Shown: positions 8,695 through 24,063, numbered from the stretch's first letter. The stretch: 25,478 nucleotides of DNA from a virus (IMGVR_UViG_2737471843_000008:1-25478); one strand, 5' to 3'. Notes: generated by a model not told the origin, from the letters alone. Translations and numbers: made by a program.

Positions 8695-11600
8695 TCAGCA
8701 TCCCCCCGTCACGTCGCATGGACAGCATTACTGCACGCACACGCTGGTCAATCAGACCAACCAGACCACTCGCTGCCTCCGGACCAATCTGCCCACTGCT
8801 GCCATCGTTCTGTATGGCGATATTGTACACCGGAGAATAGACAAATCCTCCCGTACTGCCGGCATTACCTGCAACACGTACTCCCAGAGAGCCGTCAGCC
8901 GTCCGTGCCAGCGGCATGATGGCCTCCGGCCCGGCCTCGCCCATCAGGCCGATCCCTTTCGCAAAAGCGAAATACGTTGGTGTATCGACAATGCTGTTAC
9001 TGTAAGCGCTCAGACCTGCGGATGCGTAAACGCCACCTCTGGCATTCTTCAGTGCGCCGGACAACCAGTTACCAATACCACCGGCCAGTCCGCCCATACC
9101 AGACATTGACCCGGCCAGTGATTTCAGACCGTTCACAATGGCGACACTCATCAGAATTCCGGAGATCTCCTTCAGGACAGCCGCCGCCCAGTCACGCCAT
9201 GCCACAAGGTTACCTGACAGGGCTTCGGTTATATTATTCACCAGACCGTCCATTGCAGTCCCTGCAGCAGACGCCATCTGACCGGCATAATCCGACGCGT
9301 TGTCAGCCCAGTTCGCCAGACCTTCACGCATTCCCGCCATCCAGTCACTGCGCTGTTGATCCAGCGCTGCATAAAATTCAGCGTTGTCCTTCAGACGCTC
9401 GCTCAGGTACTGCGCGTTCAGCGCCTTCTCCTGACGGAACAGTTCCTCCGTAATATCCCCGGACTGATACTGTCTTTGTAAATCCTGATTTTTTTGCAAA
9501 AACGCTTCACGAATACGTAACGCCTCCTGCATGCGCTCCCGCATCCGCGTACCCTGACCGTAACCCGTGAGTTCTTCCCGATACGATGACCGACGGCTGG
9601 CGTTCTCATCGGCCAGATTAGCTTCATATGCGGCAAGCTGTTGCCGGATATTTTTCTGGTCAATCAGCGCCGCATTCTGTAGCAAAAGTTGCTTCTGTGC
9701 AGACGAAAGGGTGGTCAGCTCACCCTGGCTGACCTGGTATTTCATTTTCGCCAGTTCGGTATTCTGTCCTGCCAGTGCAAGCTGTTCTTTCTGCTGTTTA
9801 ATCAGCCTGTTGTAAACATCTTCTGCTTTTTCAGCTTCCGATTTTGGCCCTTTTCTCTTCGGCTTATTCGCCTCATTATTGCGCCAGGTCTCCATCCCTG
9901 TACTGATGAATTCCTGGCGTGCAGTCTGATATTTGTCGCCGACAAAGCCAAGATCATCAGCAGCATATCCGAGACGCACGCGTTCTCTGGCCTCGCCTTT
10001 GAGACGGGACAACTCCAGCGCCTGCTGGCTTTTTTTCAGTGCGTCCTGCTGTTTATCATCCAGGGTTGCCTGTGGCAGACGTAACGGTACATTCACCAGC
10101 CCCTGTCGCTGCTGAAGTAATTCATTACCGAGCCCGAGAAGGCGATTAAACTCGGTATGCTGCCCATTCATGATCAACAGGGACTGATACGCTTTGTTTT
10201 GTTCCGCGGCCTGTTGACGGATCAACGCCACCCGTCGCTCCTCCAGCCCGGCAAGCACATCCTGAATGGATTGCGCTTTGCCCTGCATTTGTGTGAGACG
10301 GGACTGTTCAACTGCCAGTTGATTTGTTGCTTCTGCAAGCCCTTCTGTGACAGTTTTTACCGACGTCATGTGGTTAATCATAAAACCGTTATCGGTTGTC
10401 CAGCCCGGGTTTGCCAGCACATACTGATAGCCAGCAATTTTTTCCTGTAAGGATTTAATCTTACTTTTCTGCTCGTCAATTAACCTGTTTTGCTCATCAA
10501 GTGCCTGCCGCGTCTTTTCCTCATTATCTGACGCTTCAGGAAGCGACATTGCCGACGTTTTCTGGCGAATTTCGTCGATTGTTGCGGCATACTGGCGTGC
10601 AGATTCTCTGGCCTGCTCCTGATTCTGATACATCGTGTACCAGGCCGTCGCCCCCAGCATGACGAGTCCCGGCACACCACCAACCAACCCCAGCGCACCA
10701 CTTAACAGACGACTCCCCACTGACGTGACAGTATTCAGCGTTGTCTGTGCCGCTGTTCTGGCCGCAATATTACGGGTAAGTGACGCCTGGGCAGCTGTCA
10801 GCTTCGCTTCTGCTGCGGCCTGCCTTTCGGTACCGCGAGCAGCAACAACCGCCTGTTGCGCACGATAAACCGCCGCACGCGCCCTGGCGGTTGCTATCTG
10901 TGTCCCCCGAAGTTGCGCTTCAGCAAGAGCCACTTCGTTTCTGGCTGCAGTAATTAATCCGGCAGTTGCAGATCCAGCAGACGACGCCATATTGCCAAAA
11001 TATCGGGCTACCCCGACGGCAACCAGAGCACCGGCAGCGGTTGCCACGGTGTCAATATTGCCTGCAATACCATTCAGCACACCGGAGAGCGTCTTCGTCA
11101 CTCCGCTTGCCTCGTTCGCACCACCAACCCAGGCCATAAAGGCGTTTTCAACTTTGGTTGCAGAGGATGAAACCGTATCAGGCATTGCCGCATATTCATC
11201 ACGTAATGCCCCAAGCTGACTAATCAGTGCAGGAACAACCTTATCGGCGGTCAACTTTCCGTTATCCGCCATGGCCTTCAGATCCTTACGGGCAACTCCC
11301 ATTCCCGCAGCCAGAGCACGAATAACACGATCGCCGTTCTCATTCACCGAGTTAAACTCTTCACCGCGCAGCACTCCCTGCGCCAGAGCCTGACTGAACT
11401 GCGTGATCACCGAACTGGCTTCTGCTGTACTGGCACCGGATAATTTCAGCCCCGTGGAAATCGCCTCAGTGACTTTCAGGACCTCCTCAGAACTGTAGCC
11501 ATACTCCCGCATGGAAGCTGCAGAGCGGGCAAAAAGGCTGGCGTTATCAGAAAACGCCGTCCCCGTTCTCTGGCTGATTGCCATTAATTCACGCTGTGAT

Positions 11601-21983: not shown

Positions 21984-22334
21984 TTAAGGTTGTGATTCCG
22001 GAGGAGTCTTCAGAGAACCAGTAATTCTTCCTGGTAGCTTTCCTTTGTAGGTTATCCACACATTCTGCGCATCTAAAATTACGGGGCGCTTTTCCGGCGA
22101 CTGCTCATCCCCTTCACATAACCCGGCAGCAACATCCAGGAAGACCTGTCTGATGCTCCTTCTGGCTGCTGCCTCATAAAACTCCAGCGCGGCACCTTCA
22201 ACACGGTCCAGCGAGATGTCCAGGTCAAAAATTTCGCCGTCAAAGCGTTTTTTGTCCCGTAACGCTAAAGTTACCGTAACTTTATTCTCAAAATTGCGGA
22301 TCCCTTTCACAATCAGTTCATAGTTTTGAGTCAT
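21984..22334 (-). CDS. hypothetical protein inside the lysis cassette (possibly YdfR/DUF1327-like)
   Basis: 116-aa ORF beginning five nt after the holin stop and ending 63 nt before the endolysin start. No recognisable catalytic motif or TM segment. Confidence 0.55.
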   Translation of the reverse strand: MTQNYELIVKGIRNFENKVTVTLALRDKKRFDGEIFDLDISLDRVEGAALEFYEAAARRSIRQVFLDVAAGLCEGDEQSPEKRPVILDAQNVWITYKGKLPGRITGSLKTPPESQP

Positions 22335-22338
22335 TGAA

Positions 22339-22554
22339 TTACTCTCCCCGTGCCGCCTTACGCTTGTCTTCTTTAATCTTGAAATAAAGGTTTGTCAGAT
22401 ACGTCAGCAAGCCAAATACCAGACTACCCAGCACACCTATTGCCGCCCACTGTGACGGACTGACCTGATCAAGCCACTGTAAAAACCAGTAGCCAGCACT
22501 GCCTGCGGAGGTGCCATAGGCAATGCCCGTTGAAATTTTGTCCATGGATTTCAT
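22339..22554 (-). CDS. S: holin / antiholin, phage 21 S-type (pinholin) with dual-start motif
   Basis: 71 aa, '[30 protein letters not shown]...' matches phage 21 S as recalled. Met1-Lys-Ser-Met4 dual start; strong 'GGAGGTGAGG' upstream. Confidence 0.88.
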
Positions 22555-22612
22555 AACCTCACCTCCGCAAATAACGGATGGCGTAGTTTTACACTGAGAA
22601 ATGAAAGGGATT

Positions 22613-22636
22613 TGAAAAGAAAAACCCGCAAAAGCG
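22613..22636 (-). terminator. intrinsic terminator upstream of the holin
   Basis: Minus strand 'cccgc tttt gcggg' followed by 'tttttctttt'. Confidence 0.5.
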
Positions 22637-22712
22637 GGCGAAACGATATATACAGAAAGGAAAGCACTCTATCCAACAAACCACCCACAGTTAATCGGAA
22701 TAAAAGCAGAGT

Positions 22713-22786
22713 GCTTATGAATGATCGCCTGCCCGAAGGTTAGTATTTCTGCACAGCAATTTTGCAAAAAAAAGGCGATCATTCAT
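22713..22786. repeat. perfect 16-bp inverted repeat with 42-bp spacer
   Basis: 'ttatgaatgatcgcct' (22713-22728) and its exact reverse complement 'aggcgatcattcataa' (22771-22786). Confidence 0.8.
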
Positions 22787-22847
22787 AACTTAAACGTCTT
22801 TCAGTCACTCCGGGATTTCCCATCATCGCAGACTGAAAGACTCTAAC

Positions 22848-22922
<75 letters not shown>

Positions 22923-22925
22923 ATA

Positions 22926-23001
<76 letters not shown>

Positions 23002-23003
23002 AC

Positions 23004-23080
23004 TGGACCGCCACCGGGGACTCGAACCTCGCACACTCAACTTAAAGGGTTGACGCTCTTTCCTGATGAGCTAGTGGCGG
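23004..23080 (-). tRNA. tRNA of uncertain identity (anticodon loop 'ccUUUaa'; possibly Lys-like, non-canonical C33)
   Basis: 77-nt cloverleaf with perfect acceptor and anticodon stems, T-loop 'ttcgagt', encoded CCA. Position 33 is C and the T-stem has an A-C mismatch. Confidence 0.5.
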
Positions 23081-23081
23081 T

Positions 23082-23157
23082 TGGTGGCCCTTGCTGGATT
23101 TGAACCAGCGACCTGGCGATTATGAGTCGCTCGCTCTCACCACTGAGCTAAAGGGCC
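23082..23157 (-). tRNA. tRNA with CAU anticodon, ileX-like (probable lysidine tRNA-Ile2, analogous to phage ileZ)
   Basis: 76-nt cloverleaf, loop 'cuCAUaa'. Sequence closely resembles E. coli ileX as recalled. Confidence 0.7.
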
Positions 23158-23166
23158 GGGCGCAGG

Positions 23167-23195
23167 ATAATAACTTTACGAAATCAATGTTGCAA
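23167..23195 (-). promoter_or_regulatory. sigma70-like promoter driving the tRNA cluster
   Basis: Minus strand 'TTGCAA' – 17 nt – 'TATTAT', ending about 10 nt upstream of the first tRNA 5' end. Confidence 0.5.
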
Positions 23196-23277
23196 GCATT
23201 CAAAAATCACCTGGTTAAAAATTACCCTTACTTCCTCCACCAGCGCATTCACCATTTCTATCCGAGATAAGTGGCAC

Positions 23278-23300
23278 AAAAAAACCCGCTTGTGGGCGGG
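23278..23300 (-). terminator. tR'-like intrinsic terminator after the late promoter
   Basis: Minus strand 'cccgcccacaagcggg' followed by seven T, about 60 nt downstream of the putative pR' -10. Confidence 0.6.
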
Positions 23301-23355
23301 TTTTGTTTGCTTTTGCCATCACGTACAAAATCGGCAAAATATCAGATTTGCATGA

Positions 23356-23384
23356 AATATATGCCTTTCAATCTACTTTTGCAA
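23356..23384 (-). promoter_or_regulatory. putative late promoter pR' (with qut region downstream)
   Basis: Minus strand 'TTGCAA' – 17 nt – 'TATATT' at the 3' end of the putative Q gene, followed by tR'. Confidence 0.5.
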
Positions 23385-24063
23385 CACTTTGCTTTGAAAA
23401 TGCCGCCTTTTGTTTTGAACGTGTTCTCATTACAAACAATAAAGCCTCACTATCCAGTCGGTGAAAAATGTGTTTCATTGCAACCCAGTGACGAGTAAAT
23501 GTTTTGGACCAGTTTTTAGTTGTCACTCCCGCCAGTAATGCCAGCTCCTGGTATTCATAACCTTCCCCACCAAAAAGTTCTGCTTTTACTGCCTGCGCCG
23601 CCAGCCAGATTAATTTTTTCAGGCGTTCCTGCGTTTTCCCTGCAATTTTTCTGGTACCTGATTGAGTATTAAATTCATTCCACGCCCACTGTGTTATCGC
23701 GATCTGATATTCCCAACAAATACTCCCGCTGTAACTCCACAACAACCAGGCTTTATGATGTTCTTCAAGAGACAGAACAGCCCGCCGCCACGATGATGTC
23801 GAAAACTCAACCGGGCTGACCAGGGCAATTGATGAGCCTTTCGCCAGTGATTGTTTTCCCGGGATTGGTGGATTATCCCGCGTAATCATTTTTCCGGTCA
23901 CTTCATCTCGGTACCGGATTTTTTTACGCCTGTAACGCCCTGTATCGAACATGGCATTCTCCTGCCAGGCTTCAAGCTGACCTTTTGTTGCCCCACTCAA
24001 ATCAGCGGTGGCGATAATGAGCTGCTCACGCACAAACTGTAAATACTGGTTATTCATGCGCAC
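23368..24063 (-). CDS. putative late-gene antiterminator (Q-like, not lambda-Q type)
   Basis: 231-aa ORF directly upstream of the pR'/tR' signature and downstream of rusA, the canonical Q position. No Cys zinc-finger like lambda Q; assignment is positional. Confidence 0.5.
   Translation of the reverse strand: MRMNNQYLQFVREQLIIATADLSGATKGQLEAWQENAMFDTGRYRRKKIRYRDEVTGKMITRDNPPIPGKQSLAKGSSIALVSPVEFSTSSWRRAVLSLEEHHKAWLLWSYSGSICWEYQIAITQWAWNEFNTQSGTRKIAGKTQERLKKLIWLAAQAVKAELFGGEGYEYQELALLAGVTTKNWSKTFTRHWVAMKHIFHRLDSEALLFVMRTRSKQKAAFSKQSVAKVD

Follow-up and report, generated by a model that had tools for sequence, protein, structure and literature searches.

The gap between the last tRNA gene and the holin gene of a lambdoid prophage contains three hairpins whose structure is conserved at the level of RNA, in the sense of the late genes, as demonstrated by their covariation among relatives, and on balance we regard the gap as probably the transcribed, structured 3′ trailer, with its terminator, of a self-contained phage tRNA operon lying within the late leader. 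The predicted operon would consist of a sigma-70-type promoter, tRNA-Met/Lys/Thr/Gly, the hairpins HP1-HP3, an A/U-rich linker, and an intrinsic terminator, all placed between tR′ and the holin gene. The analysis was made on a stretch of viral DNA of 25,478 nucleotides (IMGVR_UViG_2737471843_000008:1-25478), hereafter the window, and positions are counted from its first letter.

The locus belongs to a lambdoid prophage, of which it forms the late leader and the lysis region. RusA, the antiterminator Q, a leader with a tR′-like terminator, four tRNAs, the gap, and the holin gene follow one another on the minus strand, and DUF1327, lysozyme, Rz, and HNH endonuclease come, in this order, 3′ of the holin gene. 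The features are as follows.

24419-24054, minus strand: RusA.
24063-23368, minus strand: antiterminator Q (PF06323).
23384-23356, minus strand: probable late promoter PR′ from a consensus scan, with -35 TTGCAA (23384-23379), a spacer of 17, and -10 TATATT (23361-23356).
23304-23274, minus strand: tR′-like intrinsic terminator of the PR′ leader, at inverted repeat I2, with the minus-strand sequence CAAAACCCGCCCACAAGCGGGUUUUUUU.
23195-23167, minus strand: candidate promoter of the tRNA operon from a consensus scan, with -35 TTGCAA (23195-23190), a 17-nt spacer, and -10 TATTAT (23172-23167).
23157-23082, minus strand: tRNA-Met(CAU), from ARAGORN and the Rfam tRNA model.
23080-23004, minus strand: tRNA-Lys(UUU), from the same two sources.
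23001-22926, minus strand: tRNA-Thr(UGU), likewise.
22922-22848, minus strand: tRNA-Gly(UCC), likewise.
22847-22555, minus-strand sense: noncoding gap of 293 nt between tRNA-Gly and the holin gene.
22846-22790, minus strand: HP1, with stem arms at 22841-22831 and 22806-22796, beginning 1-6 nt past the CCA of tRNA-Gly.
22788-22715, minus strand: HP2, a 15-16 bp outer stem enclosing an inner hairpin and a mini-hairpin.
22715-22663, minus strand: HP3, directly abutting HP2, with a strongly covarying outer stem.
22662-22640, minus strand: A/U-rich linker UUUCCUUUCUGUAUAUAUCGUUUC, unpaired in the minimum-energy and centroid folds.
22639-22614, minus strand: intrinsic terminator, with the stem GCCCGC-UUUU-GCGGGU at 22639-22624 and the tail UUUUUCUUUUC (UUUUCUUUUC) reaching to about 22614.
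About 22569-22560, minus strand: holin ribosome-binding site GGAGGUG.
22554-22339, minus strand: phage-21-type holin (S21; PF04971, E = 3e-36, ORF list), with its ATG at 22554, the first gene downstream of the gap.

The PR′ candidate overlaps the end of the Q gene, and its assignment, which comes from the consensus scan, is probable. The leader that would start from it is about 70 nt long and ends in the tR′-like terminator, whose palindromic stem (23281-23304) was called on the plus strand by the terminator scan. Weak, sub-threshold Rfam matches resembling isrK/isrJ at 23279-23352 are consistent with a short PR′ leader RNA; isrK and isrJ are Salmonella sRNAs from prophage PR′ leaders, and the leader may give rise to a StxS/IsrK-like short RNA in lysogens. 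At the other end of the gap, the holin ribosome-binding site lies within a perfect 10-bp inverted repeat (22504-22513/22560-22569), whose partner is inside the holin gene, and is also able to pair with upstream leader sequence. The N terminus of the holin, MKSM (22543-22554), is a dual-start motif of the phage-21 type, and the repeat and this motif may together serve translational control of the holin/antiholin ratio.

The four tRNAs score 44-72 bits with the Rfam tRNA model and are spaced by 1-3 nt. The -10 hexamer of the putative tRNA-operon promoter ends 9 nt upstream of tRNA-Met and is followed by a G+C-rich discriminator, CCTGCGCCC. Among relatives whose clusters start with tRNA-Met, which provided 51 distinct upstream sequences, the pattern TTGNNN-17-TANNNT ending exactly 9 nt before tRNA-Met was found in 49, with a G+C-rich discriminator after the -10 and mosaic sequence farther upstream. 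We infer from this that the tRNA cluster has its own conserved sigma-70-type promoter in the window and in most relatives, for which a start site mapped between tR′ and the tRNAs of the Stx2 phage Sp5 provides an experimental precedent (PMC7547250). With its own promoter motif, tRNAs, trailer, and terminator, the cluster looks like an autonomous unit nested in the late leader. Such a unit is not universal, because phage HK639 carries the element without the tRNA promoter, its tRNA coming directly after tR′.

Some peculiarities of individual tRNAs were also observed. HK639 (L001 2665-2830, minus strand) has a complete tRNA Asn-GUU, detected with ARAGORN, right after tR′, and next to it, ahead of the element, only the 3′ half of a tRNA-Gly(UCC), which points to a past deletion or recombination within the tRNA cluster. 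The D-loop of tRNA-Gly(UCC) in the window (at about 22906) reads GUAUAAUAGCUAUU, whereas nearly all relatives have GUAUAAUGGCUAUU, meaning that a conserved D-loop G is replaced by A, and the function of this tRNA may be impaired by the change. The top-scoring promoter-like site of the region (22907-22934, minus strand, TCGGCA-16-TATAAT, 10 of 12 matches) lies at the junction of tRNA-Thr and tRNA-Gly; its -10 is the D-loop of tRNA-Gly, and it is probably a coincidence of tRNA sequence.

The fold of the minus-strand RNA consists of HP1, HP2, HP3, the unpaired A/U-rich linker, and the terminator. The conserved features of HP1 are an asymmetric internal loop, UGCGAUGAU/GGAGUGA, and a GGG-loop-CCC tip; when the internal loop was compared by eye with kink-turn, C/D-box, and sarcin-ricin motifs, no clean fit was obtained. 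The inner hairpin of HP2 (22770-22763/22753-22746) has the strands UUUUUGCA/UGCAGAAA and the loop AAAUUGCUG, and HP2 also includes the mini-hairpin CC-UUCG-GG at 22739-22732 and the invariant loop motif UUGCAAAAUUGCUGUG at 22767-22752. Between its outer stem and inner hairpin runs a poly-U tract (22772-22765), whose length in near-identical prophages ranges from 6 to 9 nt. The 3′ strand of HP3, GGGUGGUUUGUUGG (22686-22673), is G/U-rich and nearly invariant. The linker is A/U-rich in every subtype of the element and yet is not homologous between subtypes. The terminator has the makings of an intrinsic one, i.e., a 6-bp stem with 5 G-C pairs, a 4-nt loop, and then UUUUUCUUUUC, and it ends about 45 nt upstream of the holin ribosome-binding site. 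Its hairpin, at -10.9 kcal/mol in the window, has only -6.6 or -3.3 in many close relatives, which suggests that there may be no strong selection for insulation. At the boundary between the terminator and its U tract, a run of G decays in relatives from GGGUUUUU through GGUUUUUU to GUUUUUUU, and both this run and the poly-U tract of HP2 look prone to slippage.

What first drew attention to the gap was an inverted repeat, which the earlier note had described as a perfect 16-bp repeat with a 42-nt spacer at 22713-22786. A repeat search confirmed it, with positions differing by 2: the arms are 22715-22730 (TTATGAATGATCGCCT) and 22773-22788 (AGGCGATCATTCATAA), 16 nt each, 100% complementary and 42 nt apart. 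With loops of up to 100 nt allowed, no perfect inverted repeat in the window is longer, and 300 first-order Markov simulations of the window gave none above 14, so the repeat is not due to chance. Perfect pairing over 16 bp is peculiar to the window copy, as most close relatives have ...GAUCGCUU, which gives 14 Watson-Crick pairs plus U·G and U-A. The terminator reported near the holin gene at 22613-22636 is real, and it belongs on the minus strand with its stem at 22639-22624. A tiny ORF does start with ATGAATGATCGCCT (MNDR...) on both strands, as had been pointed out, and this is a mere consequence of the symmetry. The view of the gap as structured holds, since the minus-strand RNA 22847-22555 folds at -98.3 kcal/mol (z = -5.6 versus shuffles), and so does the view of it as noncoding, because variation in poly-U length and a truncation in HK639-type copies break the small ORFs. 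The general idea of a functional structured RNA from the minus strand finds support in the conservation of the hairpins. Two points had been missed: the 16-bp repeat is one of three hairpins, namely HP2, flanked by further perfect hairpins at 22796-22806/22831-22841 (11 bp) and 22662-22670/22708-22716 (9 bp), and the element appears to belong to a tRNA transcription unit composed of promoter, tRNAs, trailer, and terminator.

The conservation of structure was evaluated on an alignment of 38 non-redundant HP2+HP3 sequences (A1), in which 96.9% of the cells are paired and 13 of the 42 pairs have changes on both sides. All five measures exceeded those of 500 out of 500 shuffles, none of which reached the observed values, and pairing fell to 35-50% in slid controls, where the 3′ partners were shifted. 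Changes on both sides are found in 5 of the 15 pairs of HP2 helix 1 and in 4 of the 8 pairs of the HP3 outer stem, two positions of which are split between UA (18 sequences) and CG (18 sequences), and the inner helix of HP2 (8 pairs) is 97% paired. HP1, assessed on alignment A2, has 17 pairs, 3 of them with compensatory changes. The paired cells include 193 G·U versus 19 A·C, and with a covariance model of HP2-HP3 (R1) the minus strand reaches 135 bits, the plus strand 20; both the excess of G·U and the strand bias of the score indicate that the conserved object is an RNA in the late-gene sense. The loop motifs stay invariant while the stems covary, and these motifs, GGGUGGUUUGUUGG in HP3 in particular, imply that a partner recognizes them by sequence. 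The calibrated covariance model and the alignment produced here could seed a new RNA family.

The region was found in 530 of 5426 complete E. coli genomes (~10%), mostly at 95-99% identity, on chromosomes only and never on plasmids, with one copy per prophage and a median of one place per genome; no annotated RNA feature coincides with the element among the matches listed from these genomes. Carriers include E. coli APEC O1 (NC_008563, about 2,074,300-2,074,600) and lysogens of phi467 and PhiR47_1. Only six deposited phage records contain it. The copy in HK639, one phage with two records, is 76% identical, and comparison by eye indicated that all three hairpins are kept via compensatory changes and that the terminator is a different one. 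Scans of viral contigs and species-representative genomes, for which the two best-conserved motifs were used as patterns, gave about 150 loci, and the true matches in bacterial genomes all belong to Enterobacteriaceae (E. coli, Shigella, Enterobacter, Citrobacter, Yokenella, and Phytobacter).

Among 91 distinct contexts gathered by an nhmmer-based collection, the element comes right after a tRNA in about 70 (mostly Gly-UCC, also Arg-UCU, Glu-UUC, and Thr-UGU), and about 15-20 have no tRNA directly upstream. Between the tRNA 3′ end and HP2 there is either HP1 (53-57 nt) or nothing, HP1 being missing in some relatives in which HP2 abuts the tRNA. A terminator-like hairpin and a U run follow 33-51 nt past HP3 in most contexts. 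At the level of sequence, these contexts establish that the hairpins are linked to a tRNA 3′ end with a terminator after them, as the promoter motif is to the first tRNA at a fixed distance. The holin gene starts about 100-170 nt downstream of HP3 and belongs to one of at least eight unrelated families, with a cargo gene coming first in some relatives. The earlier note was thus right in assigning the element to the cargo (moron) site, and the search of relatives that it proposed located the repeat region in related prophages, adjoining variable downstream genes. Moron cargo and prophage sRNAs sit at this same place between Q and the holin gene (PMC4104026), and the element is, as far as its contexts tell, a conserved module at a mosaic junction. 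One cargo gene downstream of the element, which is small heat-shock-like, is preceded by a FourU RNA thermometer (RF01795, 91.7 bits; L169 2674-2738).

If the gap is the trailer of a tRNA operon, its behavior could be pictured as follows. In a lysogen, the operon would be transcribed on its own, and tRNA processing would free the tRNAs and leave a trailer RNA of about 170-230 nt up to the terminator, which in turn would shield the lysis genes, including that of the holin, from operon transcription. During lytic growth, Q-modified RNA polymerase from PR′ would read through, and excision of the tRNAs would yield a lysis/late mRNA with the hairpins at its new 5′ end, defining and protecting it. 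The spacing of 1-3 nt suggests that each tRNA 3′ end is set by the RNase P cut at the next tRNA, and for the last tRNA the trailer helix, 1-6 nt past the CCA, would take the position of the next tRNA. The gap does have the position of a tRNA-operon 3′ trailer, lying between the last tRNA, which ends at 22848, and a terminator on the same strand (22639-22614); the scheme's promoter, cleavage sites, and RNA termini are predictions. HK639-type copies have 6-7 unpaired nt ahead of HP1, which weakens the idea of 5′-end protection, and a simple protective hairpin leaves the invariant loop sequences unexplained.

Among known kinds of RNA, the 3′ETS RNAs of tRNA operons and the late-leader sRNAs of prophages come closest, and the stable RNAs of the phage T4 tRNA cluster are also close. 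The tRNA gene cluster of T4 encodes the stable species 1 and species 2 RNAs (rnaC and rnaD). These are structured RNAs processed from a phage tRNA-cluster transcript and are in this respect comparable to the element; T4 belongs to another phage group and has no known sequence relation to the element. Stabilization of mRNAs by 5′-terminal stem-loops, such as that of the ompA 5′ UTR, was reportedly described by Emory, Bouvet, and Belasco in 1992. A stable helix would similarly lie at or near the 5′ end made by tRNA excision, but stabilizers of the ompA type need no conserved loop sequence, whereas the element has invariant loops and three domains. The 3′ETS of E. coli glyW-cysT-leuZ (3′ETS-leuZ) is said to have been found by Lalaouna et al., in 2015, to be a sponge for sRNAs. 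It resembles the element as a noncoding RNA between the last tRNA and the intrinsic terminator of the operon, cotranscribed with the tRNAs and released by their processing, as is presumed for the element from its arrangement. It differs in being about 50 nt long and chromosomal, in contrast to a trailer of about 230 nt with three conserved structured domains that is phage-borne and upstream of lysis genes. The same RNA appears as 3′ESTleuZ in the supplement of PMC8550237. Among the literature on prophage tRNA 3′ETS RNAs, analogues were found and none of the papers concerned the element; in the full texts of the library searched, neither of the two invariant motifs nor its complement occurs. 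In Rfam scans of 22300-23500 at E ≤ 1 and of 22555-22850 at E ≤ 10, only the tRNAs passed the thresholds, and the best matches inside the element had 10-18 bits against thresholds of 38-100. Within the element, none of the families, including STnc100, AsxR, AgvB, Esr41, IsrK, riboswitches, and ribozymes, came near its gathering threshold.

A role in trans is possible, though we entertain it only tentatively: the trailer, or its HP2-HP3-terminator portion, might be a stable regulatory RNA bound by Hfq or ProQ that pairs with targets as an sRNA or sequesters host sRNAs as a sponge, with the invariant G/U-rich strand of HP3, the HP2 loop, or the A/U-rich linker as its seed. Such a role could coexist with that of a tRNA-operon trailer and would be akin to those of 3′ETS-leuZ and of the prophage sRNAs from the same site. 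The order of structured 5′ domains, an A/U-rich single strand, and a terminator with a U tail is typical of Hfq-dependent sRNAs, invariant loop motifs among covarying stems would suit a trans-acting RNA, and validated Hfq-binding sRNAs, namely those of the AsxR/AgvB type (PMC4104026), PasA/PasC/PasD (PMC8550237; bioRxiv 10.64898/2026.05.13.724894), and StxS (PMC7547250), occupy the same gap between Q and the holin gene. In HK639, moreover, STnc100 (RF02076) stands in tandem with the element, directly after it (L001 2206-2411, minus strand; other STnc100 loci are L178 8805-9005 and L120 6455-6567), and the late leaders of such phages are arrays of units, each made of a structured RNA plus a terminator. 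These moron-site sRNAs, STnc100 included, have in common with the element an intergenic position beside the holin/lysozyme operon of lambdoid E. coli prophages and an end at an intrinsic terminator, but they resemble it in neither sequence nor structure and are backed by northern-blot and Hfq evidence, whereas the element is a prediction from sequence. For the Pas sRNAs, whose place (intergenic in a lambdoid prophage, beside the holin/lysozyme operon, with a 3′ terminator) is also that of the element, blastn with a word size of 7 against NC_011601 (738000-745500 and 1057500-1063000) gave chance matches only, and model R1 gave at most 13 bits on the PasA, PasD1, and PasD2 loci of E2348/69. Several observations speak against action in trans. 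In the consensus structure, pairing occupies most of the G/U-rich strand, which is the best conserved, the linker beside the terminator, the usual position of a seed, is not conserved between subtypes, and the window holds no complementary target of the two invariant motifs, their complements occurring there no more than by chance. The occurrence of HP3 alone within mRNA leaders and between late genes also looks like action in cis.

These solitary hairpins, which are found away from tRNAs, share the same GGGGUGGUUUGUUGG strand with HP3 and have different covarying stems. One lies after a moron gene and upstream of the holin gene (L156 12603-12657), another after Rz (L152 8001-8055), and another about 70 nt ahead of STnc100 (L178 8692-8746); at L162 (5602-5621), L177, and L183 the hairpin is in the 5′ UTR of a DUF4406-like gene, 17 nt ahead of its ribosome-binding site. 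Such a distribution over late-region gaps and a 5′ UTR favors a cis-acting module. It is conceivable, if on the whole unlikely, that HP2 and HP3 are portable RNA modules, each read by a specific host or phage factor via UUGCAAAAUUGCUGUG and GGGUGGUUUGUUGG, in which case HP3 would serve phages as a general RNA signal instead of being a one-off sRNA. One possibility is that such a module is a pseudo-tRNA or hairpin substrate that guides a cut by RNase P or another endonuclease 1-6 nt past the last tRNA, and this single cut would give both the tRNA 3′ end and the protected 5′ end of the lysis mRNA; one other possibility is a protein-binding site that sets the dosage of the lysis genes.

We consider it quite improbable that the element controls transcription of the lysis genes in cis, either as a put-like antiterminator or as an attenuator or riboswitch leader that switches the terminator at 22639-22614. 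The put RNA of HK022 has a layout of two hairpins, and HP2 and HP3 resemble it as abutting stem-loops upstream of a terminator in a nascent phage transcript. HK639, which uses put RNA, carries both put and the element, the latter upstream of three more terminators. Put, however, follows closely on the early promoters PL and PR, whereas the element lies in the late leader of Q-encoding phages, where Q (PF06323) already explains late antitermination. The putL-like RNA annotated in HK639 (record 34187-34312; L199 4188-4313) folds differently and was not matched by model R1 even with filters off, and if a put-like element stood behind a constitutive tRNA promoter, lysogens would express the holin. 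As for attenuation, the terminators and linkers are not homologous between subtypes, which means that there is no conserved alternative pairing that could act as an expression platform, and the Rfam scans gave no matching riboswitch or leader family.

Still less probable is a feature at the level of DNA, whether a scar of recombination, the boundary of a module, a palindrome bound by a protein, or a miniature transposable element whose ends are inverted repeats. The mosaic junction, beyond which the sequence varies among relatives, and the perfect palindrome of the window copy would fit such a feature, as would the locus L098 (about 9560-9700), which diverges right after HP2 and where an insertion-sequence-like (transposase-type) ORF begins in place of the absent HP3. 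This reading is largely refuted by the strand asymmetry of the pairing, as the G·U pairs would read as A·C mismatches in the opposite strand, and compensatory changes occur in all three hairpins. The suggestion that the region is a scar of cargo exchange is rejected in view of such changes across relatives that are about 75-80% identical and of the invariant loop motifs. A miniature inverted-repeat transposable element would be expected as dispersed copies with terminal repeats, but the element occurs once in the window and once per prophage, at a median of one place per genome and never on plasmids, and the repeat is an internal stem and not the ends of a mobile unit. The expression of a small protein is scarcely credible, since the 37-aa ORF on the minus strand (22782-22669), which ON470580 annotates as a hypothetical CDS, and the 23-aa and 8-aa MNDR... 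ORFs do exist, but the reading frame is not conserved among relatives, the poly-U tract, 6-9 nt long in relatives with 94% identity or more, shifts the 37-aa and 23-aa ORFs through every frame, the HK639-type ORF stops after 10 codons, and the substitutions follow base pairs and not codons.

The structured 3′ trailer of a phage tRNA operon, as we prefer to see it, appears from its alignment and model to be a family of structured RNAs not described before, in a niche that is already known, carried by about 1 in 10 complete E. coli genomes. Covariation, strand asymmetry, and invariant loops together are the strongest kind of evidence for a functional RNA short of experiment, and the comparison of upstream sequences also documents what appears to be a conserved promoter for the tRNA clusters of the lambdoid late region. 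Should lysogens express the trailer, a new RNA would join those prophage sRNAs by which host regulation is rewired. Should the trailer be cis-acting, it would show how phages house tRNA genes in a late operon, sparing the downstream mRNA, without leaky expression of the lysis genes.
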